The notes: a model not told the origin generated them from the letters alone. Counted from the stretch's first letter, positions 4,462 to 27,091 are shown. The stretch: 39,787 bases of DNA from a virus (IMGVR_UViG_3300012944_000017:1-39787); one strand, 5' to 3'. Made by a program: numbers and translations.

Positions 4462-4489
4462 CGAATCCTAACCGAAGGAGCAGGCACCC

Positions 4490-11114: not shown

Positions 11115-11564
11115 TCAAATGTGGGTGTAGGTCCAGTGCCCAGGGGTTCCGGTGCAGGTGAGGCAATCGCGGCGCGTGGGCTCGTCCGTATCGGCGATCG
11201 CCAGGTGCAGCCAGGCGTTGCACTCGATGATGAGCTGATCGAAGGGCAGGCTTGAAGCGCGCACCAGCGCGAAGGCGTCGTGCAGGTCCATGCCGATCGG
11301 GATGATGTCCGCTCCCCGCCCGTCCAGATGTGCGCTGTGGGGCGCTGTGGAGCCCACCAGGCGGTTCACCTCCGGGTTACGGAACCCACTGTCCACATGC
11401 AGGTGCACGCCCAGCAGCGTCCTGGCGGGCTCCAGGAGCGTCACGCACAGCCGGGTGAGGGCGCCGATCTGCGCCTCGTTGGGCGTGTTGATGATGCCGC
11501 GGCGCAATGCGATCTGGCTGAAGGTGAGTTCCTCGAGCGAGAAGTGCGGGGACAGCGGGGTCAT
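11115..11564 (-). CDS. Endolysin, peptidase M15 (L-alanyl-D-glutamate / D-Ala-D-Ala peptidase type)
   Basis: HFSLEELTFSQIALRRGIINTP...LLEPAR...VDSGFRNPEVNRLVGSTAPHSAHLDGRGADI matches the M15 pattern (HF.l.E......A...gi.N.P...LeP.R...SGyR....N..vGG...S.H..G.AaDi), which carries the zinc ligands H...D...H. Confidence 0.8.
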   Translation of the reverse strand: MTPLSPHFSLEELTFSQIALRRGIINTPNEAQIGALTRLCVTLLEPARTLLGVHLHVDSGFRNPEVNRLVGSTAPHSAHLDGRGADIIPIGMDLHDAFALVRASSLPFDQLIIECNAWLHLAIADTDEPTRRDCLTCTGTPGHWTYTHI

Positions 11565-11947
11565 TGGAGCCTCCCTCGGATGGCATGGGCCACGCCCGCC
11601 TCGATGCTGAGCTTTTCGACATCCTGCACGCCCATCTGCTTCAAGATGCTATCGAGCGCGGCATCCAGGCTCTTACCCTTGGCCAGGACCCCGAGCGAGC
11701 GGATGCGTACCTGGTGCTGGCGGAGCACCGCGTAGCGGAGCGAGACCTGGCGCAGCTCTTCCTTCAAGTTCTCAAAGAGCTGGCGCGATCGCTCCCGGTC
11801 CTTTTTCATTTCCTCGTACTGCGCGGCGTACTGCCCCTCCAGCCGAGCAATGATCTGCTCGGTGGTTTCATCGCGCGTCCTGATGATCGCGAGCGCTTTA
11901 CAAAGCTGGTCGCGCAAACACACCGGATCGTCGAGGTCAAGTTCCAT
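11561..11947 (-). CDS. Coiled-coil protein (128 aa), unknown role
   Basis: Track ORF 11561-12052 trimmed to the ATG at 11947, which overlaps the tailspike stop (ATGA). Heptad-like charged sequence. Confidence 0.5.
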   Translation of the reverse strand: MELDLDDPVCLRDQLCKALAIIRTRDETTEQIIARLEGQYAAQYEEMKKDRERSRQLFENLKEELRQVSLRYAVLRQHQVRIRSLGVLAKGKSLDAALDSILKQMGVQDVEKLSIEAGVAHAIRGRLQ

Positions 11948-14118
11948 CAGGCTTTGATCCACTTCGAGAGAACCCCATCGTACATGATCTGCTGGGTGCC
12001 CAGCGGCGGTATGGTCAGCGTGGCCGCGCTCGGCAGGGAAAACTGGTTCCACGCATTCGAGGCACCGTTCAGGTGCGAGAGCTTCACGTTATCGGCGGCG
12101 CTCAAGTTCTGCACCAGGAGGGTGGTGCCGTCGGTCCAGGTCGTTGCCCCTACGCCCGTGAAGAGTCCCGTGATCGTCGTATCCCCTGCATTGGGCGTGA
12201 GGCGCAAGCGTTTGACATTGATGCTCCAGTTCGTCGGGTTGTAATTGTTGACCGTGGCGCCCATCGCTGCGGGGCCCAGCGCGGGACTGAAGGTCATGTT
12301 GCCGGCGTAGAGATTGTTCTGAATCTGCGTGTTGACATCGCCCGAGTTGTTGAGGATCGGGCCGAGGGTATTCAGGAACAGCGTGTTACCGGTAACCGTG
12401 TTGCGCGCCGACCCGAGGTCGAGCTGCACGCCGTAGGACATGTCCGAGGTCGAGGAGCCGGTGTGCTGCCCGATCATGTTGTCGAACACCTTGCACTCAT
12501 AGGAGCTGGGGCCAAGCTGGAAGCCCGGATAAGTGCCGACGGCGAGCTGGCTGTTCTTGCTGATCTTGAAGTCCGAAAAGCGGATGCCGTTGCCGTCGTT
12601 GTACACACCGTTGAGTTTGCAGGTGACGATGACCCCGCCCTGGAAGGAAGCCTCGCGGCAGTTGGGGTAGATGTACATGCCGTGGCCGTCGAGCGCGGTC
12701 ACACCCGCATTGTTGGCTCCCGAGTTGTGGATGTAGAGCTGATTGAAGTAGTGAGTGCCGGTGGTCCCGGCCCCCGCGGTTCCCAGAATGACGGCCGTCC
12801 CCCATAGCCCATCGAATTGAGTATCCGTCGCGTCGATGAATTCCCCAAAGCTGGTGAGCGCCGCCGGGTTCGTCGTGATGACGCCAAAGCGGCAGGCGAC
12901 TGCACCGCAATGCCTCATATCGACGGTGTTGACGCCGCCCTCCAGCACCAGAAAATCCGAAGAGGTCGAGGCCGCTCCGCCCGTCCCCCCATACTGGATG
13001 TCGTCCAGGTCCAGCACGTTGAAGGAGGTTGCGGTGGTGCCAACGGCCTTGATGAAGGCGCCATTCGTCCCGAAGTTCGCGTTGCCCCAAATGTCCCGCA
13101 ACCCAATGGCGTTGATGTCCTCGAGATAGATCGCGCCCGCTCCGAGGCTGTTGGTGCGGATGGTCAGATCATTGATGACGATGCGATTCTGACCCTGCAA
13201 GCTGAGGGCAAAGCCACCGGTCATCCCACCCACATCGAGCACGGCGTGGCGAAAGCCAGCGCCCGTGACGAAGGCCGTGGTCCACTTGAAAGCATCGACG
13301 GCGGTGCTGAGATTCAAGGTCACAGAGCCGCGCGAAGCGCCGGAGAAGCACACCTGGCGTCCCGCGCAGTTCACCTGAGCATCGATCTTGTAGACGCCCT
13401 CGGGCATCACAACGCTCTTGTTCGCATTGGCGGCCTGCTGGAATGCGCTTGCCGAAGAGGCGGCCCCGGTGGCATCAGCTCCATAGCGGCGCACATCCCC
13501 AGGCGGGTAGAAAAAGGCCGTGGGCACGACGCCGGAGGAGATTTCATTGGCGGTGCGGGGCCAGAGGAACGCGCCGATGCTGGATTGCGAGAGCGTGCCG
13601 GAGGGCACCGATACCGCAACGCTTAAATTTCCGGCACCATCGAAGCTCGGGTACGTGTTGGCGCGCGCCGCCGCAGTGGGCAGGAGCATCGCCGGGGAGA
13701 CATCCCCATCGGGGGTGTGGATCGCGCGGCCCAACTGGTCCTCGAGGCGCTGCACCATCTGCGTCAAGCGATCGAAATTGGTCTGCACGGCAAGCGAGGG
13801 GAACGCCTGGCCCTGCACGTACTGCGTCTGCTGCTGTCGCACTGGGTTGATAAAGACTTGCAGCACGTAGCCCACGGCATAGGGCGAGGGGATCTGGCCC
13901 GTGAGCGTGGTGAGCGTCCACTTCGGGGGCGCATCGGTGCTCGAGGCGACCAGGGTGTAATCGGAATTGAGCACCAAGGCGAACACCGAGCCGGTGGTGG
14001 TGTTGGTGGCGAGCACCGTAAAATCGCTCGCCTGGTAGGCTTGGATCGGCACCGGGAAAACGGTGCTCGCCCCATCGCCGTTGTACAGGGCGCGCGAAGC
14101 GGTCGTGCCTATGGTCAT
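11947..14118 (-). CDS. Tail fibre / tailspike with right-handed beta-helix (pectate-lyase-superfamily) depolymerase-like domain
   Basis: The N-terminus ALYNGDGASTVFPVPIQAYQASDFTV is typical of phage fibre anchors. GDVRRYGADATGAASSASAFQQAANANKSVVMPEGVYKI matches the Pectate_lyase_3 entry motif. The remainder is a long G/N/T-rich repetitive beta region. Confidence 0.7.
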   Translation of the reverse strand: MTIGTTASRALYNGDGASTVFPVPIQAYQASDFTVLATNTTTGSVFALVLNSDYTLVASSTDAPPKWTLTTLTGQIPSPYAVGYVLQVFINPVRQQQTQYVQGQAFPSLAVQTNFDRLTQMVQRLEDQLGRAIHTPDGDVSPAMLLPTAAARANTYPSFDGAGNLSVAVSVPSGTLSQSSIGAFLWPRTANEISSGVVPTAFFYPPGDVRRYGADATGAASSASAFQQAANANKSVVMPEGVYKIDAQVNCAGRQVCFSGASRGSVTLNLSTAVDAFKWTTAFVTGAGFRHAVLDVGGMTGGFALSLQGQNRIVINDLTIRTNSLGAGAIYLEDINAIGLRDIWGNANFGTNGAFIKAVGTTATSFNVLDLDDIQYGGTGGAASTSSDFLVLEGGVNTVDMRHCGAVACRFGVITTNPAALTSFGEFIDATDTQFDGLWGTAVILGTAGAGTTGTHYFNQLYIHNSGANNAGVTALDGHGMYIYPNCREASFQGGVIVTCKLNGVYNDGNGIRFSDFKISKNSQLAVGTYPGFQLGPSSYECKVFDNMIGQHTGSSTSDMSYGVQLDLGSARNTVTGNTLFLNTLGPILNNSGDVNTQIQNNLYAGNMTFSPALGPAAMGATVNNYNPTNWSINVKRLRLTPNAGDTTITGLFTGVGATTWTDGTTLLVQNLSAADNVKLSHLNGASNAWNQFSLPSAATLTIPPLGTQQIMYDGVLSKWIKA

Positions 14119-14126
14119 GGTGTCAC

Positions 14127-17100
14127 CTATTGCGTCTGAGCGTGCCGCTCGGCGGCGCGCTGGGCTTCGGATTGGCCGGGCAGGTCAAAGGCGTCCCCGA
14201 TCGAGTCCTCGAGCTGGTTGATCCCGTGGCGCAAGTACCAGATGTTCTGCCCTGGGGCCATGCGGCGGAGGAAGTGCAGGTCGGAGCGCCTGAATTGCAG
14301 ATTGGCCTCCCCGCCTTCCTCATCCATGTTGGGGTTGCCGAAGATGCGGCCGGGGAACTGGCGCGTGTAGGCGCTCGCCACGGTGCCCGCGGTGGGCCCC
14401 AGCAACGTTTCGACCGGGTCGCGATCGGACCAACGCGAGAGGTTCTTCATGCCGAACTGCCAGAGCATCGGGAATAAGAACTGCCCGGTCCACCCGACCA
14501 GGTTGCTCTTGTCCACCACTTCGATCCCGAGGCGCGTGGGATCAGTCTCGATCGGCTGGTCGGCCACCTTCTGCTTGGTGTAATAAGCCAAGTACCCGGC
14601 GGCGAGCAGGCAGATGAGCGCCTGGGCGCTGCGGTAGTCCCCATGCGCCAGCCCTTGAGCGAGCGGGTTGACCACCGAGCGGCTCGCGGCAAAGGCAAAA
14701 CTCGTGAACTGCAAAATGGTCTTGCCCCATTCGGTCGACATCAGGCCCGGCGTGTCGCCCGCACCAGGGCGCAGCGTCACGCCGTGCGCGAAGCGCAGCA
14801 CCGCGGATTCAAATTTGGCCGCGAGCTTCTGGTCGTGCCAGAGCTCGGAAGCGCCGAACTGGAGCCCGCGGGCCTCCAATCCAAAGCGCCCGTGCTCCTC
14901 GGCGATGGCGGCGAGCTCATCGGTGCTTAAGCCCGCGCCGGCGAGCATCACTCGAATGCCCTTCGGCACCGTCTGCATGTTGGCGAGCTTGGCGGCGCTG
15001 CGCAGTATCTCGTCCTGGGCGAGCACGCCGGTCAAACCCTGCACCAGCGTGATCAGCGGGGTCTCACCGGTCAGGATCGTAAAGAAGCGCGTGGCGCGGT
15101 TCATGAGGCGCTGCTCGAGGTACTGGCTGTGCTGGGCGTAATCGCCGAGCATCGAGGCGGTGGCGTTCATGGTCATATCGAGCGCGGCCCCCATGCGCTG
15201 GGTCGTGTCGCGCGCGAGCTTGAACGCCTCCAGGCTCGTGCCCAATCGCACCATGGCACCGAAGGTGCGCGGCGCGCCGAACTTCAAGACGGTGTTGGCG
15301 ATGTCCGGGAAGTGAGCGAGGGTGGCCGCTCCCAGCAGGCGCAGTGCGTTCTCCCCACGGAGCAGGCGGGCCGCGCGCACAAAGAAACTGCCCGGATTTT
15401 TCGGCTGCCCGTAGATGCCATAGAGCCGATCGCGCATCAGCGCGATGTCCTTGAAGTCCTGGTTCTGCTGCTTGAGCAGATCGTTGGCCTTGCCCTCATC
15501 CCCGGCGGCGAGCGCGCGCTGCTTGAGCACCGCGTACTCATCGTTGATCCCCTCGAGCTGCTGCTTCAGGTCCCGGCTCCCGAAGCGCTCGGTGAACTCC
15601 ACCTCGGGCGCCATGGAGCGAAGGTAGGCGTGCGTGAGGTGGTTGATGTCCTGGTTTAGAAACGGCTCGAGCTTCTCATCCGGGAGCCGCAGCGTCCGCC
15701 CGGTCATCTGGCCGCTGTGCGGGACCCCATCGAGGATGTGCCAGTCCATGGTGCCGCGCTCACCTCCCAGCACATTGCGCGTCACATCGTGCGCGATGCG
15801 CTCGGCCTCGCCCCGCTGCTCGGCGGAGTCTTTGAACATGTCGGCGCGCGCCGGATCGCGCGCGAGCTGCTCCTCGAACGCATCGGTGAGGAGCGCGTGC
15901 CAGGCGGCCAGGTGCGCTCGGATCGCGCGCCCATCGTACTGGCGCATCAGATAGCTCTCGGCGTAGATGTCGGCCTGCGCGGGGATGAGCCCGGCTTTAA
16001 GCGCCCGCTCGTAGAGGGGCTGGAACACGGTGGCGCGGGTCTTGACCGCCGCGGTGGCCACTTCGGGGATGTCGCTCCGGTCCCCTCGGCGCATCGCAAA
16101 GCTCACCTGGCGATCCCACTCCTGGCGCGTGAGTGGGCTCCCACCCTCGGCGGCAAGACGCTGGCGGTAGGTCTTGAACAGCCGGCCGCGCTCGCGGAGC
16201 GATTGGTGCCAAATCCCGTCATAGCGCCACAGTTGCCGCTCGATCGGTGAGGGGCTGGGGACGCCACGGTAGTTCTCGTTGGTCAGCTCCGGGATGTTGA
16301 CCAATTCCTGGGTGAGCTGGCGCACCCGGAAGCTCGGGCTCCCCAGGGCCCGAAGGCCCGGTGCCACGCGGCCAATCGTGCCCTCGGCCATGATGCGCGC
16401 GCCTCGCCCTAAGCGCTTATCCTCCAGGTTCCCCGCTTCCGCGGTCCGGTACGGCGTGTCCGGCTCGCTGATCGCAAAGGGTGCGGCCGGCAATCTTGCC
16501 TCCGGGGCACTGTGGCCCATGATGTCCGGCTGCGGGTAGCTCACCGGGTAGGATCGCTGGCGGGTGGCGAGCGTTTGCAGGCCGGCGGCGCGCGCGCCGG
16601 TGATGCGGATTTGCCCGTAGGCATCCGTCATGAACATATCGGCGACGATGCCGCTGCGCGCGAGCGGCCGTGCCCCTTTGAGGTCCGCCTCCTTGCCCAC
16701 CAAAAACACATGGCCGCCGGCGCCGGCCTCGCGCTGGATGCGCCGGATGCGGGCGAGTGCCGGCACGCCGCCCTTCTCCGACCCGCTCAGCATGTCCTTT
16801 GGGAAATCAGCCAGCACCTTGCTGAACCCGCGCGAGTCCGTCGCGATCAACGTCACATTGCCGGGCGCCACCTCGAGCTGCTTGGCCACCACGGCGAGCT
16901 GCTCGGGGCTCTCCACTTTGGCGGCGAGCAGCGGGTGGGCGAGCGTCGGGTTCACGTACGGATCGGAGTAGCCACCCAGGTGCGGGGCGCTCACGACGCG
17001 CGACTCCCCGTGCCCTTCGATGTGCCCGTAGCTGTTGCGATTGACAATGATGTGGCCCTTAAAGCCGGGAACCACGTTCGCCGCTCGGGTCGTGAACATC

Positions 17101-20100
17101 ACATCCTGCATCGAGGGCTCAGGGTTCCCGCTCGGGTGGTTGTGCTGCATCCAGTAGCCAGTGGCCCCGTGCAGGCGCATGGTGCTGGCGAGCGTGTCGA
17201 GCCAGCCGGAGGAGAAGCTCACGGCGCCGGCGAGGCGGGAGGTGCCTCCGTACTGGTGCACGATCGCGCCGCTGTCGTCGGTGAGAAAGAAGCGCAGGGT
17301 CTCAAAGCGCCGGTCTCGGTACACCTGCGCGAGCGCGGCGAAATCACCGGGCGTGCGCGGGTGCTGGCCCACAAGTGAGAGGTGGCCCTGGGCGGTGAAC
17401 TCGCGGGTGAGACCGTTCGCCAGTATGGACGCGCCGGCGTTGGAGTCGCGGCGCGCCAGGAGCGATCCGAGAGCGGCTCGGCCGAGCGCCACTTGCGTGC
17501 GGCTCGTCGTGGCACGAGTCTCGATGTGCGGCGCGAAGTCGAAGGCGATCTGTCCATCGGCGGCGGTGACGCTCTTGCCCTTGTAGCCGCGCGTGGGCTC
17601 GGCAACCGTTTCCGGTTCCTCTGGTGCCGGCTCCCCGCGCAATCCGAATAGGTCACCGGAGCGCGGCACCACGGCGTGGCGCATGAGCTCGGCGGGGCTG
17701 AAGGCTTCGGTGGAAAAGAGGCTCGCCTGATCGGTGCGCTGTGCGATCGCCGCATCGGCGTATTTCTCGAGTGCCGCGGCCGCCTTGTCCCGTCCCACCA
17801 GGCGTCCGTCGACTGAGTAGAACGCGCGCACCGCCAGTGACTTCGGCGCGAACATATCCGCGGTGGCCAGGTGCTCGGCGAGCGAGGTGCCACTGGCCCG
17901 GAGCTTGGCGACATCCTCCACCGCGCTCACGATGGCAGGGGTGATGTCGAATCGTTCATCCACGGTGCCGTCGGCGATCGCCTGACGGAGCTTGGCAAAT
18001 TTCGGGGCCGCATCCTGCAAGGCATTGAGCGTGGACTTCATCGAGTCGTCCGTGCTCTCGAGCATCCGGCCCAAGGTCACGTTGCTCGCTTCCGTTCCGC
18101 CGTACGCCTTGGCGAGGATCGCGGCCTGCAATCGCGCTTCACCGGCCTGGCTCAGTACGTTGTGCGCATCGACGTAGGCGTTGCGCTCGCTCGCCGGGAT
18201 CAGCTCCGCGAACGCGCGCACGAAGGGCGCGTTGGCCACAGTGGTGAGCTCGCCGGGCTGGAGCTTATCCATCGTGATCGCATCGAGGTTGTGCGCATCG
18301 GCCTGTGCTCGCTCGACCGGTGAGAGGCTGCCGACGCTGGTGGAATTCGCCTCGATCGCAAACTGCTGGCGCTCGGTGGGGGACAGGGCGCTGGTGCGCT
18401 CGCGCACCAGCACCGGCGCCTTCATGCCCTTCACGTCGTACCCCAAACTCTCGAGGTGCGCGCGGTACGCGGCCGCCTTCTCGGGACTGTTGGCGTAGCG
18501 GCCCTCGTACACCTGGCGCAGTGCCATGACGCGACCGTTGCCGCTTTCGACGGCGTTGTCGGGCCCGACGATCGGTGCGCCGCGGTCCGCCTCTGGTGCG
18601 GCGCCGAGCTGCTCGGGGTTCAAGCGCATCGCGATGTCCGCGACCTGCGCCTCGCTCGAGGCGCGACCCTTGCGATCGCGCGGCTGGAGGCCGGCGGGGT
18701 AGTTGGGATTTTCGGAGGTGAGGAGGTCGACCGCTTCAACGAGCTTGTGGCGCACCTCGATGCGCCGCCCCGCGGCGGTGAGTACCTGCTCTACTCGTGG
18801 ACGGGGAACACCACCGGCACCGGGCTCGCGTTGCTGCGCGCCTCGCTCTCCTGCTCCGCCAGCGCCTTCTGCGCCGCCTCCGGTGGGTAGGGTTTCGGGG
18901 CCGAGGCCAGCTCCGCGTCCAGCTTCGCCTGGTGGGGCCGCAGGCCCGTAGAGCTCGGCAAATGTGGTCGCTTTTTCATTCAGGTTGCCCTTTCGGACGA
19001 ACTCATTATAGCTCTCCGGCAGGTGGATGACCAGCCCCGCGGCACTCCCAAGCCTCTGTTCCGCCATGATTTTTGCCGGCGTTCCACGTGGAACGTTATT
19101 GTCCAGCAACCGGCTGTGCTCGAACAAATGGGCCCGCTCCGCCCACCCCAGGGCGTGCTCCTTGTGGGCCTTCAACATCGCATCGGTGGGCACGTAGCGC
19201 TTCTCGGGCCCCTCGGCGCGCTTGACCATGCGCACCACCGCGCTGTCGGGGTGGACCGAGACCGCCACCTCGTGCACTTCGTACCCCGCGTCCTTCAACG
19301 CCTGCACTTCGATGCGCGCCTTGGCCGGGTCCGAGAGCGTGCGATCGAGGATCAGGTGGTAGCGCCCCTCGATGGCGCGGCGCAGCGCCTGGTCGTAGAG
19401 GAGCTTCGATTCATCGTGCGTCACGGCCGCAGCGCGCGAATCGCCTGCGGCCACGATCTGCTTGTACTCGGGGAGCCCATCCAGCCCCTTCTTCTCGTGT
19501 CCGGTCTTGAACTCGTCCGGGTCGAGCTCCACCGCGCCCTTCGGCAACTGGCCCGCGGCGGCGAGTGATTTCTTGACCGTGCCCTTGCCCGACGCGCCGC
19601 CACCGGAAAAGAAGATCGCCACGGGCTTGGCTTGGCCGGCGATCGCGCCGGCGAATCGCTGGTCGATCAACCGCTCGCGCAGCTCCAGGCGCTCCGGGCT
19701 CACGTTGTTGGCGTGGCTGAGGAGCAGCTCGTGCCCCTGGGGCAGGGTGATGGGCGGCTCGGCGAGCCCGAAGTTCGCGAGCTCGAAGTGCTCGGGGGCG
19801 ATGCGGGTGGCGAGTGACCGTCGCAGGTCCTCGTGCAGCGCGTGCGTGAGCGGTGGCGTGCGCTCGGTTTCGGTAGGTGCCTGCGCGACTGGTTGACGTT
19901 CCGCGCCCTCCGTCGGCTTTGGTTGCGCGGCGTCGCTGACAACCGGCGGGGTGAGCTCTGGGCTGAGCGGCACGGGCTCGGTGGGCTCTGGCGTGTGCGC
20001 CGCCGCGACCGCGGCGCGCGCCGCCTCCTCGGCTTCCTGCTCCTGGGCGCCGGTGTGCTCGGCCAACTGGCGCGTGAGGTCCTGGTGCTCGGCTTGCAGG

Positions 20101-21200
20101 CTCTGAAGCTGTGCTTCGAGGGAGGCGCGGCGCTCATCGATGTTGGCGGTCGCGCGCTCGGCGAGCACCTCGGCGGTGCGCGCGCCATACCGACGCTCGA
20201 GGGCGGCCAGCACTGAGGGCGGATGCTTGAGGCGCTCGAGCTCCGTGGCGATCGCCTGCTCCCGATCCCCCAAGGTCCCCTGAATCTGCGCGCTGGTGGC
20301 CTGTAGCTCCGCCTGGCGGGCTGTGGCGGCCGCCGGCTCGAAGGGTGTCACTGACCCGCCTTTCCCGCTCGGGCGCTCTGGCGCCTTCGGGACAGCGGCC
20401 TGGGCGGCATTGCGCAGGTCCGCAGCAATGTCGGCCGCGTCCGAGGTCGGGGGCGGGTGAAACGGCCAGGGGCCCGGCGGGACGGCATTGCCGCGCTGGG
20501 CGCCGAAGATGTCCTCGGCACTCCCTGCCGGCGGCACATTGGCCAGCTCGCGGGTGGCGGCGGTGCGCAAGCGATTCACTTCCCCTCGCCCGCCGATCAG
20601 GCCGCCTAAGGTCCCACCGAGCAGGGCCGAGGCGGCGATGCCCGCCGCCTCCTGCCCGGCGCTCTCCGGGCCCTCGTGGAGGGATTTCAGGGCCTCCTGT
20701 TCGGCCAGGCTCGTGCCCGCCCCGATGAGGGCGAGCTGCGCCATGCGCGCCAGGCGCGCCTCGGCGGTGATGGGGATCGCCATGGCCGTGATCGAAAACG
20801 GGTCGAGCAGGCCCGCTCCGATTTCGGCGATCGTGCCCACCTTGCCGGCACTGCGGAGGGTCTTTTCCACTGCGGCGCGATGATCGAGGCGAGTCTCGGT
20901 GCGCAGCATGTCCTGCGGGCTCTCATCGAGCGCGAACGCCTCCTGGTGCATCTGGTACTCGGGCTTGATGTGCGCCAGCGGGTCGAAGCCGGCCACCGCT
21001 TCACCGGGCGGCAATCGCTTGTCGAGGTCCTGCTCGTAGTGCCGTTGCGCAAAGTAGTTGCTGCTCTGGAAGGCCGCGCGCGTGACATCCCAGCCCGATT
21101 GGTACTGCTCGGGCTCCGGCGCCCCGCTGGGGCCGCGCGGGGGGAGCGCATACGCCGGGGCGTCGAGCTGCGTGTCCGTACCGGCGGGGTCAAGTGGCAT
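14127..21200 (-). CDS. Giant internal virion / DNA-ejection protein (2,357 aa), polyvalent: Zeta-like kinase + ParB-like + RadC/JAB modules
   Basis: This is the largest ORF. It sits in the T7 gp16 position, after gp14/gp15-position proteins and before the tailspike. The embedded motifs are listed as separate features. The C-terminal third is helical, with a TM-like segment (ALICLLAAGYLAYY). Confidence 0.8.
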   Translation of the reverse strand: MPLDPAGTDTQLDAPAYALPPRGPSGAPEPEQYQSGWDVTRAAFQSSNYFAQRHYEQDLDKRLPPGEAVAGFDPLAHIKPEYQMHQEAFALDESPQDMLRTETRLDHRAAVEKTLRSAGKVGTIAEIGAGLLDPFSITAMAIPITAEARLARMAQLALIGAGTSLAEQEALKSLHEGPESAGQEAAGIAASALLGGTLGGLIGGRGEVNRLRTAATRELANVPPAGSAEDIFGAQRGNAVPPGPWPFHPPPTSDAADIAADLRNAAQAAVPKAPERPSGKGGSVTPFEPAAATARQAELQATSAQIQGTLGDREQAIATELERLKHPPSVLAALERRYGARTAEVLAERATANIDERRASLEAQLQSLQAEHQDLTRQLAEHTGAQEQEAEEAARAAVAAAHTPEPTEPVPLSPELTPPVVSDAAQPKPTEGAERQPVAQAPTETERTPPLTHALHEDLRRSLATRIAPEHFELANFGLAEPPITLPQGHELLLSHANNVSPERLELRERLIDQRFAGAIAGQAKPVAIFFSGGGASGKGTVKKSLAAAGQLPKGAVELDPDEFKTGHEKKGLDGLPEYKQIVAAGDSRAAAVTHDESKLLYDQALRRAIEGRYHLILDRTLSDPAKARIEVQALKDAGYEVHEVAVSVHPDSAVVRMVKRAEGPEKRYVPTDAMLKAHKEHALGWAERAHLFEHSRLLDNNVPRGTPAKIMAEQRLGSAAGLVIHLPESYNEFVRKGNLNEKATTFAELYGPAAPPGEAGRGAGLGPETLPTGGGAEGAGGAGERGAQQREPGAGGVPRPRVEQVLTAAGRRIEVRHKLVEAVDLLTSENPNYPAGLQPRDRKGRASSEAQVADIAMRLNPEQLGAAPEADRGAPIVGPDNAVESGNGRVMALRQVYEGRYANSPEKAAAYRAHLESLGYDVKGMKAPVLVRERTSALSPTERQQFAIEANSTSVGSLSPVERAQADAHNLDAITMDKLQPGELTTVANAPFVRAFAELIPASERNAYVDAHNVLSQAGEARLQAAILAKAYGGTEASNVTLGRMLESTDDSMKSTLNALQDAAPKFAKLRQAIADGTVDERFDITPAIVSAVEDVAKLRASGTSLAEHLATADMFAPKSLAVRAFYSVDGRLVGRDKAAAALEKYADAAIAQRTDQASLFSTEAFSPAELMRHAVVPRSGDLFGLRGEPAPEEPETVAEPTRGYKGKSVTAADGQIAFDFAPHIETRATTSRTQVALGRAALGSLLARRDSNAGASILANGLTREFTAQGHLSLVGQHPRTPGDFAALAQVYRDRRFETLRFFLTDDSGAIVHQYGGTSRLAGAVSFSSGWLDTLASTMRLHGATGYWMQHNHPSGNPEPSMQDVMFTTRAANVVPGFKGHIIVNRNSYGHIEGHGESRVVSAPHLGGYSDPYVNPTLAHPLLAAKVESPEQLAVVAKQLEVAPGNVTLIATDSRGFSKVLADFPKDMLSGSEKGGVPALARIRRIQREAGAGGHVFLVGKEADLKGARPLARSGIVADMFMTDAYGQIRITGARAAGLQTLATRQRSYPVSYPQPDIMGHSAPEARLPAAPFAISEPDTPYRTAEAGNLEDKRLGRGARIMAEGTIGRVAPGLRALGSPSFRVRQLTQELVNIPELTNENYRGVPSPSPIERQLWRYDGIWHQSLRERGRLFKTYRQRLAAEGGSPLTRQEWDRQVSFAMRRGDRSDIPEVATAAVKTRATVFQPLYERALKAGLIPAQADIYAESYLMRQYDGRAIRAHLAAWHALLTDAFEEQLARDPARADMFKDSAEQRGEAERIAHDVTRNVLGGERGTMDWHILDGVPHSGQMTGRTLRLPDEKLEPFLNQDINHLTHAYLRSMAPEVEFTERFGSRDLKQQLEGINDEYAVLKQRALAAGDEGKANDLLKQQNQDFKDIALMRDRLYGIYGQPKNPGSFFVRAARLLRGENALRLLGAATLAHFPDIANTVLKFGAPRTFGAMVRLGTSLEAFKLARDTTQRMGAALDMTMNATASMLGDYAQHSQYLEQRLMNRATRFFTILTGETPLITLVQGLTGVLAQDEILRSAAKLANMQTVPKGIRVMLAGAGLSTDELAAIAEEHGRFGLEARGLQFGASELWHDQKLAAKFESAVLRFAHGVTLRPGAGDTPGLMSTEWGKTILQFTSFAFAASRSVVNPLAQGLAHGDYRSAQALICLLAAGYLAYYTKQKVADQPIETDPTRLGIEVVDKSNLVGWTGQFLFPMLWQFGMKNLSRWSDRDPVETLLGPTAGTVASAYTRQFPGRIFGNPNMDEEGGEANLQFRRSDLHFLRRMAPGQNIWYLRHGINQLEDSIGDAFDLPGQSEAQRAAERHAQTQ
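17030..17310 (-). other. RadC-like JAB/JAMM domain inside the giant protein
   Basis: FETLRFFLTDDSGAIVHQYGG...GYWMQHNHPSGNPEPSMQDVMFT contains the RadC/JAMM signature HNHPSG..xPSxxD. Confidence 0.7.
18420..18750 (-). other. ParB/Sulfiredoxin-like (ParB-type nuclease/NTPase) domain inside the giant protein
   Basis: LQPRDRKGRASSEAQVADIAMRLNPEQLGAAPEADRGAPIVGPDNAVESGNGRVMALRQVY matches the pattern seen in DarB-type polyvalent proteins (lQ.RDR.r..S..Qi..IA..ldP..L........GaPIv.....VeSGNgR..AL). Confidence 0.65.
19090..19710 (-). other. Zeta-toxin-like P-loop kinase domain inside the giant protein
   Basis: The Walker A motif is KPVAIFFSGGGASGKGT (DNA about 19578-19625). It is followed by ELDPDEFK, THDESKLL, HLILDRTLS and RYVPTD, an order typical of the Zeta/PezT-type kinase fold. 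Confidence 0.65.
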
Positions 21201-21201
21201 G

Positions 21202-23418
21202 TCAGTGCATCCCTTCCGGGAACCCTAAGTGAGTGGGGTCGGCCTTGCGCTTGACCTCCCAGGCATCGCGCGCCTCCTGGGCGCCCTTCCGGCTCTCCTC
21301 GATCAGCCGCGCCCGCTCGGTCTCGTAGAGCTTTTGACCATCGGGCACCGTCCAGGTCACCGGCTCCCCATTGCCGCGCAGGAGCGGGGTGCGATGCCCG
21401 AGCGCATCGGTTTCATAGACTGAGAAGCGCCGCCCGTTGCTCCGATCGGTGGTGCTGTCCGCGACGATCGCCAGTCCCTTGCGATCGAGTCCCGGAAATT
21501 CCTTTTGCGCGCTGTCCTCCAAATCCTTGCGGATGAACGCGGTGGTTTTCTCCTGCGGCACCAGGTGCTGCGGGTCCATCGCCGCCTCGGGCGCCCAGCG
21601 CATGAACTCGCGCTTCCCATTGACGCCGGACACGCCCCACACCCGCACCAGATCAGCGCCGGCGGCCGCCTTCGCCGCGGCGAGGTTCCCGCCGGTCTCT
21701 CGGTAGTAGTGGGCGAGCAGATCGTTGTAGTCGGTGAGGATGGCATGATTGCCGGGGAGCGGGGGGAGTTCACCGCCTAAGCCAAAGGCGCCGCCCACCT
21801 TGGCGCCGGGCACCTTGTCGAAAAACCCGTTGACATCGGAGGCCACGAAGTTCGCCGGCTTGAGTGATCGCAAGCGCGCATCGAGGGCGCTCACGTACTT
21901 CGGATCGAGCTGCGCCACCTGGCGCGCGCCCTCCACCGCCGCTGTCGGATCGCGACCGGCGCGGATGTCCTCGTTGATCACCGCGGCCATGGCCTTGGTC
22001 TTATCATCGATCGAGTAGGGCGCTCCGCGAGGGCTCGCAAGCTGCAAGCGCTCGAGGGCCTCGGCCGCTTGCGCGGCCGGCTGTGGGGCACCGCTCACGA
22101 GCTGCGTGCGCGCCCAGGTGACCATCGAGGGCGGGACGACGCCCGTGCGCGAGGCGATGTCGGCCCCGAAGTTGATCCACTGCGCCGAGCCGGCGGGCTG
22201 CTTGCCCACGTTCTGCACAAAGAGCGCGTCGATTCCCTCGCGCGTGTCCTTGTCCTTCGGATCAAGGGGGAGCCCATTCTGGTAGGCGTTGGACGTGGCT
22301 GTCGCCACAGCGCGCGTGGCTGCCTGCTTGTCATAGGCGTTCTCGAGCTGGCCCATCTTGTTGCCCGCCTGCGCCGGGTCGAACACGTTGCGGTGGTACA
22401 GGTCCATGAGCACGCCCCGATCGCCCGCGTCCGGCTGGCCCGTGGCGATGCGGGTCTCCAGTCCAATGATCTGATTGCCGTACTTGTCGCGCTGCGTGTC
22501 CCGATAGAGCCCCAGGGCGCGCTGCGCCTCGGCGTGTATCTGATCCTTGATCGGCTGCTCGTAGGGGAGCTTGTCGATGGCGGCCTCCGCAGCGGCTCCG
22601 GCCTGCGGGCCGTGCATCGCGTACGCCTGCACGACGCCATGGGCCTGGAGCACCGCCACCCCTTTGCTCGCCGCTTCCAGCACCGCGGCGCGATCTTGGG
22701 GGTTGATGAGGCGCGTGAGCAGCTCGTCCTTGGCGACCCCGCCGGGCTTGAGCTGCGTGTAGACGCTGTCCGGGTCCCGATCGGCGAGCCCCAAGGCCGC
22801 GTTGGTGCTGAGCTGCTGGTCCATCGCCCGCATGTATTTGAGCTTCAAGCCCGGCGAGTTGTTGCTCGAGTTGATCTGATCGGAGAGCGTCCGGCCCACC
22901 TGGGGCGCGAGGGAGGGGTTGGCGCGCACCAGCGGGAGCTGCTTGTCCAGGTTGTCGCTGATGGACTGGTTCTGGTAATCGATGCGCTGGGTGGCCTCAA
23001 AGTTCATGGCCTCCATCGCGTAGCTGGTGCGGAGCTCCCGCAATCCGTTGTGCACGATGGCGCGGCTGTACTCGTTCTTCGCCGCGTTGGCGGCGAGGGG
23101 CTGGGCGTCCTGGTCAAATTGCTTAAGATAATTGCCGGTGAAATCCCCAGGGTCCCCCGCCGGCGTGTTGGCCTTCAAATCCTCCAGATTCTTGGCCGCC
23201 TTCAATCGAAAGTCGGCGAGCTCGTCCCCGGCCCAGGTGGCCGAATCAGCGCGGGCCTTGGCTTCCTGCTTCTTGGCGATCGCCTCGAACCCGCCAGCCA
23301 GGTCGGACAATGCGGGAGCGAGAGAGAGGTCTGGGGCGCGCGGGATGACTTTGCGCGGCAGGTCCTCGGGCTGCACCTGCGGGGTATAAATCTCCTCGCC
23401 CGGTACGCCACGGGCCAT
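21202..23418 (-). CDS. Internal virion protein (gp15-position, 738 aa)
   Basis: Assigned by size and position between the small internal protein and the giant protein. Largely helical. No lytic transglycosylase motif seen. Confidence 0.55.
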   Translation of the reverse strand: MARGVPGEEIYTPQVQPEDLPRKVIPRAPDLSLAPALSDLAGGFEAIAKKQEAKARADSATWAGDELADFRLKAAKNLEDLKANTPAGDPGDFTGNYLKQFDQDAQPLAANAAKNEYSRAIVHNGLRELRTSYAMEAMNFEATQRIDYQNQSISDNLDKQLPLVRANPSLAPQVGRTLSDQINSSNNSPGLKLKYMRAMDQQLSTNAALGLADRDPDSVYTQLKPGGVAKDELLTRLINPQDRAAVLEAASKGVAVLQAHGVVQAYAMHGPQAGAAAEAAIDKLPYEQPIKDQIHAEAQRALGLYRDTQRDKYGNQIIGLETRIATGQPDAGDRGVLMDLYHRNVFDPAQAGNKMGQLENAYDKQAATRAVATATSNAYQNGLPLDPKDKDTREGIDALFVQNVGKQPAGSAQWINFGADIASRTGVVPPSMVTWARTQLVSGAPQPAAQAAEALERLQLASPRGAPYSIDDKTKAMAAVINEDIRAGRDPTAAVEGARQVAQLDPKYVSALDARLRSLKPANFVASDVNGFFDKVPGAKVGGAFGLGGELPPLPGNHAILTDYNDLLAHYYRETGGNLAAAKAAAGADLVRVWGVSGVNGKREFMRWAPEAAMDPQHLVPQEKTTAFIRKDLEDSAQKEFPGLDRKGLAIVADSTTDRSNGRRFSVYETDALGHRTPLLRGNGEPVTWTVPDGQKLYETERARLIEESRKGAQEARDAWEVKRKADPTHLGFPEGMH

Positions 23419-23421: not shown

Positions 23422-23928
23422 TCAGGCCAACGCGGCGGTGCCGCCGATGGAGCCCAGGTCCTGGCTGGAGTATTGGCCGGCGCTCGCGCCGTAGATGCCC
23501 TCTCCCCCGCCGGTGTAGGAGCCACTCATCCCTTTTAGGAGCGCGCCGGCGGCCGAGATTGCCGCCTGCTTTTGCGCCGCGCGGGCGCCCATGCGATCAA
23601 GATACCCTTGCGTGTTGTACCCGTAGGCGACGATCGCGCCCTTGTAACGGGTGCGCAGCGCATCGAGCTCCTGGTTGATGGAGCTCTCGCGCTCCGCCCC
23701 ATAGGTGCTCGCTCCTCCTGCGACGCCGGCGGCACCGAACGCGCCGATCTGGCGCCCGAGCGCCTCGCGGGTGGAGTGGCGCACATCGCCTTCCGCGACA
23801 TTGGCCTGCGCTCGAGCAATGCCGGCTTCCTGGTCCTCGAATAGCGCCTGGGTGTTGAGCTGGTCGCGCTCGGCGGTTTTGCTGCTGTAAGCGGAGTAGG
23901 CGGCGAGGACGACGGCGGCGGCTTGCAT
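23422..23928 (-). CDS. Internal virion protein (gp14-position, 168 aa), Ala/Gly-rich
   Basis: Assigned by position. Hydrophobic N-terminus MQAAAVVLAAYSAY and G/A-rich tracts. The ATG overlaps the upstream stop by 1 nt. Confidence 0.5.
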   Translation of the reverse strand: MQAAAVVLAAYSAYSSKTAERDQLNTQALFEDQEAGIARAQANVAEGDVRHSTREALGRQIGAFGAAGVAGGASTYGAERESSINQELDALRTRYKGAIVAYGYNTQGYLDRMGARAAQKQAAISAAGALLKGMSGSYTGGGEGIYGASAGQYSSQDLGSIGGTAALA

Positions 23929-24365
23929 CAGCGCACCCGCGCGAACAGCAGGTGGGTCGCTCCATCCTCGCCGTACCTTCGCATCCCGTTCGGGGTCTCA
24001 CATTCAAAGCCCATGAGCTCGAGCCAGCGACAGCCGGGCCTAAAGCCTTGCTCCACGGTCGCCTCCAATCGCTGCGGCTGGAGCGTGCTCATGAACCGCT
24101 CGGTGGCCCGATGGAGCGCCAGCATGTGCGCGCCGGCTTCGGCCGCGAGGGCGGCCCACACGTGCCCGAGCTTCGGGCCCATCGGGATCATCCCGCCCAC
24201 GCACAGCACGCGATCGCGATCAAAAGCGGTGAGAGCCGGCCCCATTTCCTGGAGCCTGTCAGAAAGCCCTGGCACATACGAGATGCGCCCCACGTAGGCG
24301 GGCTGAACCCCCTGGGCAATGAGGAGCTTGAGGTGAAAGGGCCGGTACGGCTCGACGCGGATCAT
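23928..24365 (-). CDS. GNAT-fold-like / DUF2833-like protein (145 aa) between tail tubular B and the internal virion proteins
   Basis: The layout ...LTAFDRDRVLCVGGMIP...GHVWAAL....RLEATV...RPGCRWLELMGFECE resembles small phage acetyltransferase-like proteins (C-terminal rwle.lGF). No acetyl-CoA motif was verified. Confidence 0.4.
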   Translation of the reverse strand: MIRVEPYRPFHLKLLIAQGVQPAYVGRISYVPGLSDRLQEMGPALTAFDRDRVLCVGGMIPMGPKLGHVWAALAAEAGAHMLALHRATERFMSTLQPQRLEATVEQGFRPGCRWLELMGFECETPNGMRRYGEDGATHLLFARVR

Positions 24366-27091
24366 TGCGGCTCATGCACCTCGTAGTTGGGGAAGATACC
24401 CACCACCGTCATCGGGAGCGGTGAGTCCTGCTGCACCAGAATATACATATCACGCATGTCCTGATCGCTCGATTGGTCGGTGGGGAAGCTGATCGGGAAG
24501 TCCCCGCTCATGATCGGGGGCGGGGAATCGAGCGGCGTGGTGGTGAGGTTGTACTGGATGCGCTCCGGGTTGATCGGGGTGATCGAGGTGAGGGCGAGGG
24601 GGTCCTGGTACACATTGGCCGGGCGCGTCTGGTTGGAAAGCTGGGAGACCGTGCCGCCGGCCGCATCCACGAGGCGCAGCACCAGAGTCGCCCCCTGCTT
24701 CAATTTCCCCTGGCTCGTGCCCACATCCGCCCCGCCCTCCGGCCTCATCGGCACCAGATTCCCCTGGTAGGGCAGGCCCACCGTGACGGTGGTGAAGGCC
24801 GAGCCGAGTGTGAGGATGCCGCTTCCCGGCACCACTTGCTGGGGCTGCACCCCGCCGTCGGCCAGAATCCCCACGGTTTGACCGGTGAGGTAGGTGAGGC
24901 CCGTCACCGTGGTGCTGGTCGCACCTGGCGGTGGCGCGGCGACGCTCTGCGCGGCGCAATCGAGATACCAGGCCGACGCCTGCGTGTCGCCCACATTCCC
25001 GCCCTGCGGGCCCTCGAAGCCCTTAGTCATGTACTCGACGTAGCGGGCCGTGGCGCCATTGATGGTGCGCCGGACAATGAGCCAGAGCTCATCGCGCAGC
25101 GCGTCCGGGGAGGGGATCGAGGCGATGGATTCCACAATGCCAGAGCCGCCGAGGTTGTGGCGCGCCCAGGCCGTGACCTGGTCCTCGCGGTTGTAGGTGT
25201 AGGAGAGCAGCGTGCCGTCCGCGCGCGCCGCCCACAGCACGCTCCAGGGCTCTTGCTGGTAGGCGATCGCGACGACGCCACCGATGGTGATGTGGTAGCT
25301 GTACTTGCTCTGATCCGTTGAATCGTAGCGGTTCAGGTAAAAGTTATAGTCCATCACGAAGATTTTGCGGCCGGCGCGCTGCACGTAGATCACACTCGTG
25401 GCCACCAGCGCTGGTCGGATGTGCCGGCTCCGCCACTGGCTCTGGCGCAGCACCTCCACATTCGCCGGTCCCAGCGGGCTGCTCGAGTAGTTCGCGGCAT
25501 CGAGCCCGTACTCCCCGCCCTCGGTGCCAATGAGCAGAATGTTCGCCGGGACCATCCAGCACACGTTCGAGGCGTCCACGCCCGCCACCGGCACGTTGAT
25601 CGCCGCATCGGTGGTGATCTGGCCAAAGAAGTCCGGCGCCTGGCTCGCGTAGGAACTCACGACCGAGCCCCAGGCGGTGAGCTTGCCGGCCCAAAAGAGC
25701 CGATCCTTGAACAGCGCCACGGCGCGCGGCCATTCCGTGGTGTTGCTCCAGGCCCCCAGCGCCCACTCCACACTCGCGTTGTCGACCAGCGTCCCACCGG
25801 CCGCGTAGGCGCTGAACCCGGTGGAGTCAATGCCGGCGAGCGTCACATTGGCCGCATTGGTGGTCTGATTGGTGTACGGGGTGTTCTGGTTCACCTGCGT
25901 CATGCCGGTGACCCCGAAAATGAACACGGCATCCCCGGCCTGAGCCGCATTGGCGGTCGTCACCACCGCGGGGTTCGCCTGCGTGATCGCCGTGATGGCA
26001 CTTGCGACCGCCACCACATTGGCGGGGAAGCGCACCAGGACCTTCGCCGTCACCTGCGTGGGGCTCGTGTAAGCGGTGATCTGCGCGATGCCGTAGTTGC
26101 TATCGGTGTAGAGCCAGCGCACGCCGGTCTTTCCATCGAGCACCGCGCCGCTCGTGTGGAAGGGGGCGTCCACTCCGCTGGTGGCGGCATTGAGCGCGAC
26201 GTAGTTATTGCCGTTGTTGGTGACGGTGTCGCCCGCGACGTAGGCGATATTCCCGGTCCAGCCCGTCGTGTTGAACTGCTGGCTCGCGATGCGCACCAGG
26301 CGCCCCACATCGGTGGCCGCAAAGACATTCCCGCCGTACGCCTTTATCGTGATGGCTTGGCCCTGCACCGCACTCACGCCGAGGGCAATCTCAGCGCCCG
26401 CGACCAGCGGCACCGGCGGGAGGAACGGCCCATCAGTGGGCGCGTAGAGCGAGAACAGCCACTTGGGCGGGTTGTTGGCGTAGCGAGTCAGCGTGTAGGG
26501 CGGGTAGCCCGCGCCCGCGTAGCCGCCGGCGATGTACAGCACGTCCCCGCTTTGCACGAGCTGGAGGGCGAACTCGCCCAACGAGTCGGTGAGGTCCGCC
26601 ACCGCATACGGGCTGGGGAGCTCGAACATCCCGGTGTTGGGGGTGGCCAGGTATTGGGGTTGCACGTACCAATAGGTGGCATTGGGCGGCGCGTTGCCCG
26701 TGGTGGTGGCGATGCACAGGTACACGAAGCCACCGGAGAGCGCAAAATCACCGGGGTTGTAGGTCGTGCCGCCGTTGTAGGCCGCCGTCCCCTGGATCAG
26801 CACCGGGCCGTGGTTGGCAAAGAAGCGCACGTAAAAATCGCCAAACTCCAGCATGTACGCCTGCGTCTGTGAGAACTCGAAGGGCACCAGCCAGGTGCGA
26901 TTGGCCGAGAGCTTGACCGGCTGGATATAGGCGGTGCCGGGCCTGAAAACCGAGGGGCCCTGCTTGATGGGCACGAAATTCTGCTGGATATGAGCGCCGA
27001 TGTTGTAGCGGTCCTGATCGACCCGCCCCTCCATCTGCGGGGCGAGCTCCCCGGCGTTGAAGGCCACGAGGGCGGGGGAGGCGCGGCCCAC
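24362..27091 (-). CDS. Tail tubular protein B (gp12-position, 909 aa)
   Basis: Assigned by size and position directly after the gp11-like gene. The N-terminus LVAFNAGELAPQMEGRVDQDRYNIGAHIQQNFVPIKQGPSVFRPGT is a motif common to podovirus nozzle proteins. GTG start at 27091. Confidence 0.65.
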   Translation of the reverse strand: MGRASPALVAFNAGELAPQMEGRVDQDRYNIGAHIQQNFVPIKQGPSVFRPGTAYIQPVKLSANRTWLVPFEFSQTQAYMLEFGDFYVRFFANHGPVLIQGTAAYNGGTTYNPGDFALSGGFVYLCIATTTGNAPPNATYWYVQPQYLATPNTGMFELPSPYAVADLTDSLGEFALQLVQSGDVLYIAGGYAGAGYPPYTLTRYANNPPKWLFSLYAPTDGPFLPPVPLVAGAEIALGVSAVQGQAITIKAYGGNVFAATDVGRLVRIASQQFNTTGWTGNIAYVAGDTVTNNGNNYVALNAATSGVDAPFHTSGAVLDGKTGVRWLYTDSNYGIAQITAYTSPTQVTAKVLVRFPANVVAVASAITAITQANPAVVTTANAAQAGDAVFIFGVTGMTQVNQNTPYTNQTTNAANVTLAGIDSTGFSAYAAGGTLVDNASVEWALGAWSNTTEWPRAVALFKDRLFWAGKLTAWGSVVSSYASQAPDFFGQITTDAAINVPVAGVDASNVCWMVPANILLIGTEGGEYGLDAANYSSSPLGPANVEVLRQSQWRSRHIRPALVATSVIYVQRAGRKIFVMDYNFYLNRYDSTDQSKYSYHITIGGVVAIAYQQEPWSVLWAARADGTLLSYTYNREDQVTAWARHNLGGSGIVESIASIPSPDALRDELWLIVRRTINGATARYVEYMTKGFEGPQGGNVGDTQASAWYLDCAAQSVAAPPPGATSTTVTGLTYLTGQTVGILADGGVQPQQVVPGSGILTLGSAFTTVTVGLPYQGNLVPMRPEGGADVGTSQGKLKQGATLVLRLVDAAGGTVSQLSNQTRPANVYQDPLALTSITPINPERIQYNLTTTPLDSPPPIMSGDFPISFPTDQSSDQDMRDMYILVQQDSPLPMTVVGIFPNYEVHEPQ

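Follow-up and report, generated by a model that had tools for sequence, protein, structure and literature searches.

An ejection protein of the T7 gp16 type with three enzyme-like domains in a central slot, from an uncultured soil podophage

Introduction

What is a protein of 2,357 amino acids (aa), with enzyme-like domains in its middle, doing at the position in a T7-type structural module that belongs to the ejection protein gp16? The question is raised by an open reading frame (ORF) at positions 14127-21200 on the minus strand of IMGVR_UViG_3300012944_000017:1-39787, a viral sequence of 39,787 nucleotides that was analysed over its whole length and is called the window below. A first-pass annotation, made from the sequence alone, had placed the ORF in the gp16 slot, had described in it a Zeta-toxin-like P-loop, a ParB/Srx-like block and a RadC-type JAMM motif, and had suggested that this toolkit, fused to the protein that enters the cell first, could act before any phage gene is expressed. 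The phage is an uncultured soil podophage, probably infecting a proteobacterium. Drawing partly on analogy with better-studied phages, we consider it fairly probable that the ORF encodes an ejection protein of the internal virion protein (IVP) D/gp16 type with a passenger block of ~1,350 aa in a variable central slot, and that the passenger enzymes are delivered to the host.

The ORF and its gp16-type carrier

The ORF runs from ATG to stop in a single uninterrupted frame of 2,357 codons, as had been reported in the first pass with the strand, minus, left unstated; from the base composition of the window, a stop-free run of this length has a chance of ~1.5e-25. Its start is 1 nt past the stop codon of the 738-aa gene upstream, and 8 nt separate its own stop from the start of the tail fibre. 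The order on the minus strand is TerL, a T7-type portal (PF12236), capsid, tubular tail A, tubular tail B, two small IVPs, the 738-aa gp15-position protein, the ORF, tail fibre and M15 endolysin. By PHROG and Pfam matches of the neighbours, the ORF thus has the position of a gp16-type gene, following tubular tail B, the small IVPs and the gp15-type gene and preceding the tail fibre. The window matches a soil-metagenome contig of the Joint Genome Institute (JGI; Ga0137409_10000597, sample 3300015245), whose gene call for the same ORF carries precomputed Zeta_toxin and ddrB-ParB matches and whose gene product (P0001) agrees with ours at all residues but 2.

The modules of the ORF, all on the minus strand, are given here with their window coordinates. 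The C module (aa 1589-2357; 14127-16436) is a homologue of the C-terminal part of T7 gp16, which covers the cytoplasmic hub and the region of the second transmembrane helix (TMH II). Residues 1545-2332 match PHROG 342 (E 8.7e-71, profile positions 435-1224 of 1235), whose description, "internal virion protein with endolysin domain", is the product name on the T7 gp16 record; the module also matches PHROG 16310 (E 7e-83), and an alignment of 29 short family members (A2) matches T7 gp16 residues 518-1265 with an hhalign probability of 97.3% and E 1.9e-11. Gene order and this homology over the C-terminal ~770 aa both uphold the gp16 assignment. The PHROG 342 match begins downstream of the transglycosylase part of the profile, and Pfam finds no SLT or lysozyme family in the ORF at E<=1, in agreement with the earlier remark that no lytic transglycosylase motif is visible; no transglycosylase or lysozyme is detectable in the gp15-position protein. 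Used alone as a query against viral contigs, the C module found no close relative. An exhaustive HMMER search found it in 3,030 representative clusters, C-terminal in every case, in proteins of 908-2,969 aa (median 1,185), most of which also carry the N module.

The N module (aa 1-230; 20511-21200) is conserved across the family and was found by phmmer in 114 proteins, nearly all of which have the C module too. Within it lie, at aa 121-148 and 184-206, the protein's two most hydrophobic stretches, which are also the only strongly hydrophobic ones, and the most conserved motif of the module (alignment A9) is IGAGLLDPFSITAM at aa 127-140. This motif shows a weak, non-significant match (E 0.098) to T7 gp16 residues 320-345, within the TMH I region (PMC8954989); if the two are really equivalent, the central slot would correspond to the part of the T7 model that separates TMH I from the cytoplasmic hub of gp16-C.

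The two modules directly adjoin in the shortest family members, of 959 aa (P0148) and 908 aa (P0249). In a 980-aa relative on a contig of a Steroidobacteraceae metagenome-assembled genome (MAG), residues 1-196 correspond to ORF residues 1-202 and residues 236-974 to ORF residues 1589-2348 (52% identity), with just ~40 residues separating the two aligned modules; the C module is 52-56% identical to insert-less relatives. Since N and C modules abut in relatives of ~950 aa, ~1,350 aa have been inserted in frame into a variable central slot. The toolkit and the gp16-type protein are therefore one polypeptide, as had been proposed, though by insertion between the two modules rather than by end-to-end fusion. 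The insertion starts with a spacer (aa 231-500; 19701-20510) of Ala/Pro/Glu-rich composition with coiled-coil-like and Pro-rich stretches, which has only weak coiled-coil-type Pfam matches and is common to just 5 proteins. About 40% of the insert is of low complexity or without family assignment.

Megablast of 20 kb of the window against cultured phages gave no match, and tblastn against them matched the C module and the ParB block only, with none for the Zeta part. The whole protein gave no phmmer match in the PDB, single-segment PDB searches were weakly informative, and a word-indexed search returned 12 matches with the full protein as query and 1 with the RadC block.

The passenger domains

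As judged from the sequence, the catalytic motifs of all three passenger domains are intact, with low-complexity linkers between the domains. All the motifs quoted in the first-pass annotation are present in the translation, and each of the three modules that it named scores above its Pfam cut-off.

The first is a P-loop kinase resembling Zeta, PezT and AvrRxo1 (19158-19634), with a Pfam Zeta_toxin match of 99.4 bits (cut-off 22.3) enveloping aa 523-681 and a confident fold over ~aa 490-745. Its Walker A motif, FFSGGGASGKGT at aa 530-541, includes GGGASGKGT, and ILDRTLS follows at aa 617-623. The candidate catalytic Asp lies in LDPDEFK (aa 559-565), which aligns with IDGDSFR of PezT and VNPDVFK of AvrRxo1; Walker A and Asp are both kept in the two alignments. 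In an AlphaFold2 model of aa 480-1545, made from an input alignment of 70 sequences, the kinase region has a per-residue confidence (pLDDT) above 90. Its best Foldseek matches in the PDB are AvrRxo1, zeta and PezT (entries 4z8q, 1gvn, 3q8x and 2p5t, E 6e-9 to 2e-7; 4z8q 6.4e-9, 1gvn 3e-8, 2p5t 1.9e-7), with target TM-scores of 0.52-0.69. AvrRxo1, an NAD kinase, and zeta, a UDP-N-acetylglucosamine (UDP-GlcNAc) kinase, match about equally, so that the matches single out neither substrate. A Gly/Pro/Ala-rich linker (aa 746-800; 18801-18965), predicted to be disordered from its composition and a pLDDT below 50, leads to the second domain.

This is a DdrB-like ParB domain which, with a conserved helical extension to ~aa 1185, spans 17646-18800. 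Pfam ddrB-ParB matches aa 811-935 with 106.1 bits (cut-off 27.6), PHROG 5143 and 2299 span aa 800-1102, and the block is 34% identical to DdrB of phage P1 (tblastn, E 2e-32), so that what had been labelled ParB/Srx-like stands as a ParB of the ddrB type. Domain and extension are modelled by AlphaFold2 with pLDDT above 90. The motifs are LQPRDRKGRASSEAQVADIA at aa 838-857, GAPIV at aa 874-878 and VESGNGRVMAL at aa 884-894; among 126 homologues, LQPRxR and ESGNGR are at least 90% conserved. The nearest relative of the block, at 59% identity, is an 817-aa protein (P0013) from a 3.2-kb ENA contig, in which ParB is paired with HD-domain matches (PF13328, PF01966) and not with a Zeta kinase, and which thus represents another cargo combination.

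The third domain is a RadC-type JAB block (aa ~1220-1460; 16821-17543), assigned from its Pfam match and its JAMM residues. The RadC match, of 27.2 bits (cut-off 22.1), covers aa 1325-1377 and is partial (model positions 43-95 of 121). The JAMM motif E...HxH...S...D is complete, with E1300, H1353, H1355, S1363 and D1366, the last four within HNHPSGNPEPSMQD at aa 1353-1366. The block is 36% identical across 247 aa to its closest relative, a stand-alone RadC-like protein (P0281) that is encoded beside LPD7 and TraD genes, and a four-sequence profile (A6) matches the RadC crystal structure 2QLC (E 3.1e-9). An AlphaFold2 model of the block from a 4-sequence alignment has a mean pLDDT of 43; its top Foldseek match is again 2qlc (E 1e-5, target TM-score 0.72), and the next matches of this low-confidence model are Rpn11, BRCC36 and JAMM1. 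The profile and structure searches proposed in the first pass have thus given Pfam matches for all three segments, Foldseek support for the Zeta fold and, from a low-confidence model, the RadC match to 2QLC; for the RadC assignment we count the sequence evidence as sufficient. The insertion ends with a linker (aa 1461-1588; 16437-16820) of low to moderate pLDDT, which has no family match in Pfam or PHROG and matches only itself in phmmer.

Window and JGI contig differ at 2 bases in the 27 kb compared, 17311 and 18893, both within the ORF and both non-synonymous substitutions: T770 versus P, in the Gly/Pro linker, and R1297 versus P, just ahead of the JAMM Glu, at a site where P0281 has P too. 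The third-position GC content (GC3) of the ORF is 0.84-0.89 across the modules, the level of the neighbouring structural genes, and falls to 0.60 in the Gly/Pro/Ala-rich linker; the uniformity argues against a recent foreign acquisition of the cassette in this phage.

Use of the slot in related phages

The family was inspected for about the best 150 of the 3,030 C-module clusters. About 13% of the nearest 151 reach at least 1,500 aa, and several repeat parts of the present arrangement: P0141 (2,076 aa) has the N module, Zeta, ParB and the C module without RadC; P0055 (1,579 aa), whose synteny is the same in two independent assemblies, has N module, ParB and C module; ParB is also present in P0196, and RadC in P0149 and P0156. 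Pfam matches among 24 long members are ART-PolyVal (6), ddrB-ParB (3), Zeta (2) and RadC (2), and among 38 mid-size members Zeta (2), GNAT (2), PBECR3 (1), ADPrib_exo_Tox (1) and ART-PolyVal (1); many family inserts are without any Pfam match. The arrangement is therefore not unique, the slot repeatedly holding domains of the polyvalent type discussed below. One insert, of ~2,000 aa in the centre of a 2,969-aa protein on a betaproteobacterial MAG contig (P0150; L010 3374-12283), has no Pfam match at E<=1e-5.

A search with the passenger block returned ~300 homologues, many of them Zeta+ddrB-ParB proteins of 1,100-1,500 aa on phage-sized contigs, 42-59% identical to the ORF. In all four of the stand-alone Zeta+ddrB-ParB genes examined, the gene lies between the gp15-position gene and one for a protein of ~840-890 aa, which it overlaps by 4 bp and after which the tail fibre follows; in two of the contigs (L003 and L004) the ~840-890-aa neighbour is a full-length PHROG 684 "virion structural protein". 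The carriers of these phages cannot be aligned to that of the ORF by BLAST or phmmer. Since the cargo is alignable and the carriers are not, the cassette appears to move between diverged podophages, always tied to the ejection-protein block. The idea that the separate genes of L003 and L004 are simply split versions of the ORF was rejected: their cargo proteins lack the N module, and neither phmmer nor hhalign shows significant similarity of their ~840-aa PHROG 684 proteins to the C module, though the C module itself weakly matches PHROG 684.

Some further observations were made on these contigs. In L019 a gene resembling Asp/Arg-hydroxylases (7396-7977) lies between the gp15-position and stand-alone cargo genes. 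At the IVP-A position, L004 (7049-7504) and L019 (4235-4720) have weak matches to GNAT acetyltransferases, which recall the acetyltransferase matches of T7 IVP-A (Hardies et al. 2016, PMC4819975). A 2,408-aa protein (P0002; L001 2881-10107), whose gene adjoins an integrase, combines an N-terminal SLT transglycosylase like that of T7 gp16 (PHROG 342 positions 16-188) with ddrB-ParB and RadC; its C-terminal ~1,100 aa match nothing, and a relationship to the carrier or C module of the ORF is not significant (E ~0.09-0.1).

Comparison with known systems

The ORF resembles T7 gp16 in its slot, after a gp15-type gene and before the tail fibre, in the homology of its C-terminal ~770 aa to gp16 residues 518-1265, and in belonging to a module with portal, tubular tail A and B and small internal virion proteins. 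It differs in lacking the N-terminal lytic transglycosylase, which is present in T7 gp16 but is phage-specific (PMC8954989), in an N module not detectably related to gp16-N, in its three enzyme domains, and in its size of 2,357 aa, where a review of ejection proteins lists lengths of 609-1,337 aa for gp16-like proteins and treats the peptidoglycan hydrolase as the exchangeable enzymatic domain (PMC8954989). Outside the structural module the phage is not T7-like: TerL is upstream of the portal, and no ORF large enough for a T7-type RNA polymerase was seen in the window.

IVP-D/gp16 homologues were proposed earlier to carry "passenger" enzymatic domains to the cytoplasm, the examples being N4 gp50 and gp60 of Pseudomonas phage H66 (Hardies et al. 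2016, PMC4819975). These share with the ORF, in principle, the combination of an IVP-D-homologous region and cytoplasm-bound domains in one polypeptide (PMC4819975); the passengers here are a Zeta-like kinase, a DdrB-like ParB and a RadC/JAB domain instead of an RNA polymerase or methylase-like domain. Because of that earlier proposal, the first-pass idea of delivery together with the ejection protein is sound but not new.

The other close parallel is with polyvalent proteins, in which several effector-type domains are united in one large polypeptide, encoded in phages among virion genes (Iyer et al. 2017, PMC5512222). The ORF has at least two distinct effector or enzymatic domains, with Zeta_toxin, ddrB-ParB and RadC all above their Pfam cut-offs, and is phage-encoded among late/virion genes. 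The ddrB-ParB, Zeta-like kinase and RadC domains are all within the polyvalent repertoire (PMC5512222), as the first pass had supposed. In that work RadC is listed as specific to polyvalent proteins of conjugative elements, Zeta is found in conjugative elements or fused to MuF, and gp16 is not mentioned (PMC5512222); in the ORF, by contrast, RadC and Zeta both sit in a phage ejection protein. A zincin-like (MPTase) peptidase, which is frequent though not obligatory in polyvalent proteins (PMC5512222), is absent from the ORF, in which Pfam and PHROG show no peptidase family beyond the RadC/JAB fold.

A third parallel is with phage P1, to whose DdrB the ParB block is 34% identical. The P1 Dar proteins, DdrB among them, are internal to the head and co-ejected with the DNA (PMC12810830); a C-terminal metallopeptidase domain was identified in DdrB by Iyer et al. 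(PMC5512222). P1, however, is a myovirus with DdrB as a separate protein, whereas in the ORF the domain forms part of a podoviral IVP-D. Very large polyvalent or anti-restriction-type virion proteins, seen by proteomics in short-tailed phages, include the 2,811-aa polyvalent gp47 of the Stx phage phi24B, a proposed ejection protein (bioRxiv 10.64898/2026.04.10.717836), and the DarB-like giants of the Bcep22-like phages (PMC9144972); compared by domain content, gp47 differs in having LPD5, LPD1, LPD38 and MuF-C domains, and the Bcep22 group in being DarB-like. With the Zeta/PezT UDP-GlcNAc kinases and the AvrRxo1 NAD kinase, finally, the ORF kinase shares fold, Walker A and catalytic Asp, at ~15-19% identity, and differs from them in being embedded in a virion protein.

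Possible functions of the passenger block

The insert is flanked by the hydrophobic N module and the gp16-C homologue, and the way in which it could reach the host is modelled on T7. In the composite T7 model, gp16-N is periplasmic, two membrane regions are present and gp16-C is a cytoplasmic hub (PMC8954989), and in the reviewed models gp14 exits first, then gp15 and gp16, all before the DNA (PMC8954989). By analogy with T7 gp16, N4 gp50 and the P1 Dar proteins, a few copies of the ORF product would be packaged per virion in the head core; they would pass unfolded through the portal-tail channel ahead of the DNA, the N and C modules would help to form the inner-membrane/cytoplasmic part of the ejectosome, and the passenger enzymes would refold on the cytoplasmic side by the DNA entry point and could act before any phage gene expression. 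That the protein enters first and that its enzymes act so early are both carried over from T7. Like its solved relatives, the kinase would phosphorylate a substrate of the nucleotide type, UDP-GlcNAc or NAD+ for example, and nucleic acid, nucleotides or peptide would be processed by RadC; the need for ATP and for nucleotide or nucleic-acid substrates fits a cytoplasmic location of the enzymes. The most likely role of the block, judged from the systems that it resembles, would be counter-defence or early host take-over, the DdrB-like domain pointing to the P1 Dar anti-restriction system.

Several points weigh against delivery by a gp16-type ejection protein as just described. The RadC domain is the weakest-supported of the three, with its partial Pfam match and the mean pLDDT of 43, and no antitoxin or immunity partner for the Zeta-like kinase turned up, no search for one having been made. 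Similarity of the N module to T7 gp16 is not significant (E 0.098), so that a membrane role for it is a guess, and high-resolution views of T7 gp16 after ejection cover only gp16-N, gp16-C being placed in the cytoplasm by a model (PMC8954989). The phage is known from a metagenome contig alone, and the MAG labels of its relatives are mixed.

A wider proposal, which we hold as possible while leaning against it, is that the gp16/IVP-D family of this lineage has a dedicated central cargo slot and serves as an exchangeable delivery platform, with tethered cassettes disarming host defences at the mouth of the DNA entry before transcription. Kinase, ParB, JAB, ART, GNAT and RNase cassettes would then shuttle between stand-alone internal-virion genes and in-frame insertions, with restriction enzymes and immune signalling based on NAD or nucleotides among their possible targets. 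If this is true, the Zeta-like kinase could be an undescribed kind of ejected anti-defence enzyme.

Long disordered Gly/Pro/Ala-rich linkers part the domains, and the Zeta+ParB block is a separate protein in other podophages, both of which would suit a polyprotein that is cut at head maturation or after ejection, so that the enzymes act free. P1 DdrB is processed before packaging, polyvalent proteins have been argued often to be cleaved into units (Iyer et al., PMC5512222), and the cutter could be a host protease or the RadC/JAB fold, which is common to the metallopeptidases Rpn11, BRCC36 and JAMM1. RadC, however, has been argued to lack the ubiquitin-tail groove and to be more likely to act on nucleic acid (Iyer et al., PMC5512222), the zincin-like peptidase that the same authors linked to processing is missing from the protein by Pfam, and the N4 virion RNA polymerase is packaged unprocessed (PMC5512222); we regard cleavage as rather unlikely.

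As the ORF is a late structural gene, active enzyme would be made in the infected cell, and the passengers might therefore work there or in the capsid, in late host shut-off, as an aid to lysis, in DNA condensation or in controlling the size or assembly of the core. A UDP-GlcNAc kinase of the Zeta type halts synthesis of the cell wall and favours lysis (Iyer et al., PMC5512222), and P1 DarA and Hdf tie the Dar proteins to head morphogenesis (PMC12810830). None of these functions, though, needs to sit inside an ejection protein, insert-less relatives occur within the same family, and in relatives the slot holds enzymes as unrelated as ART, the RNase PBECR3, GNAT, kinase, ParB and JAB, which fits exchangeable effectors better than a structural or assembly role. 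A role in the producing cell is accordingly thought improbable.

It is very doubtful that the domains are decayed remnants and the block mere spacer or bulk in the core stack. The low-complexity or unassigned ~40% of the insert and the many long inserts of relatives without a Pfam match, such as that of P0150, could be read in this way; yet Walker A with the catalytic Asp, LQPRxR, ESGNGR and the full JAMM motif are all intact, and between the Zeta and ParB blocks and their homologues in phages that are otherwise unalignable the identity is 46-59%, which points to purifying selection on the block. That assembly or sequencing has artificially joined a cargo gene to a gp16-like gene arranged as in L003 and L004 is hardly credible, even with cargo and gp16-position protein being separate genes with a 4-bp overlap in four other podophages and with both base differences from the JGI record falling in the ORF, since the N module lies upstream and the C module downstream of the cargo, which simple two-gene read-through cannot yield, like fusions occur in P0141, in P0055 with its two assemblies and in ~20 other long clusters, GC3 is uniform, and both differences are substitutions, with no indels. 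Delivery of the passengers by the ejection protein thus remains the reading that we prefer.

Gene neighbourhood

The gp15-position protein upstream of the ORF (738 aa; 21202-23418, minus strand, as are all genes in this paragraph) is assigned by synteny. It has no Pfam match and matches PHROG 1044 ("endolysin") weakly and only in the non-enzymatic C-terminal part. Before it lie the two small internal virion proteins (168 and 145 aa; 23422-24365), the first matching PHROG 418 and the second PHROG 4177 and 308, and tail tubular B (909 aa; PHROG 376, E 2.5e-152) and A (203 aa; PHROG 394, E 1.6e-41) at 24362-27703. Directly downstream of the ORF is the tail fibre (723 aa; 11947-14118), whose N-terminal part matches tail and tail-fibre PHROGs. 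In 11115-23418 no peptidoglycan hydrolase associated with the virion was recognised; the M15 peptidase that belongs to the lysis cassette (11115-11564) is the one muralytic domain found there. The tubular tail B homologue (24362-27091) has an extra N-terminal region of ~430 aa with a CBM_5_12 carbohydrate-binding module (aa 278-308), and a 227-aa protein (29295-29978) has a second CBM_5_12-like match, under the Pfam cut-off.

Two candidate gene calls were rejected. The capsid gene was at first placed at 31965-32972, while the precomputed JGI Pfam match puts it at 30049-30966, and a 490-aa ORF at 4163-5635 (minus strand) is probably spurious, JGI calling just a 73-aa gene at 4163-4384 that coincides with a helix-turn-helix match. 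This small gene is opposite in strand to a run of small plus-strand genes, an arrangement resembling a repressor/early-operon switch; no integrase was found among the window ORFs scanned. The ends of the window overlap exactly over 33 bp (1-33 and 39755-39787), which suggests a circular assembly and thus a phage genome of ~39.75 kb that is probably complete.

Significance

The principle at work here is already known, from passenger domains (Hardies et al. 2016, PMC4819975) and from polyvalent proteins (Iyer et al. 2017, PMC5512222). The new elements are the set of passengers, namely Zeta-like kinase, DdrB-like ParB and RadC, the definition of the insertion slot, and the interchange between inserted cargo and cargo in genes of its own. 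The ORF joins two literatures, that on podoviral ejection proteins with "passenger" domains and that on polyvalent anti-defence proteins, and nominates the Zeta-like kinase and RadC as candidate early-acting counter-defence enzymes; a practical limit is that the phage is uncultured. The family is a natural experiment, with insert-less forms of ~950 aa, carriers of ART, kinase, ParB, JAB, GNAT or RNase, and cargo in separate genes, and its comparison marks where a gp16-type protein tolerates foreign domains, information that could guide the engineering of T7-like phages for protein delivery. For the phages themselves, the ORF provides a clean, sequence-defined example of how those with short tails can load ready-made enzymes into the protein of the DNA-entry channel.

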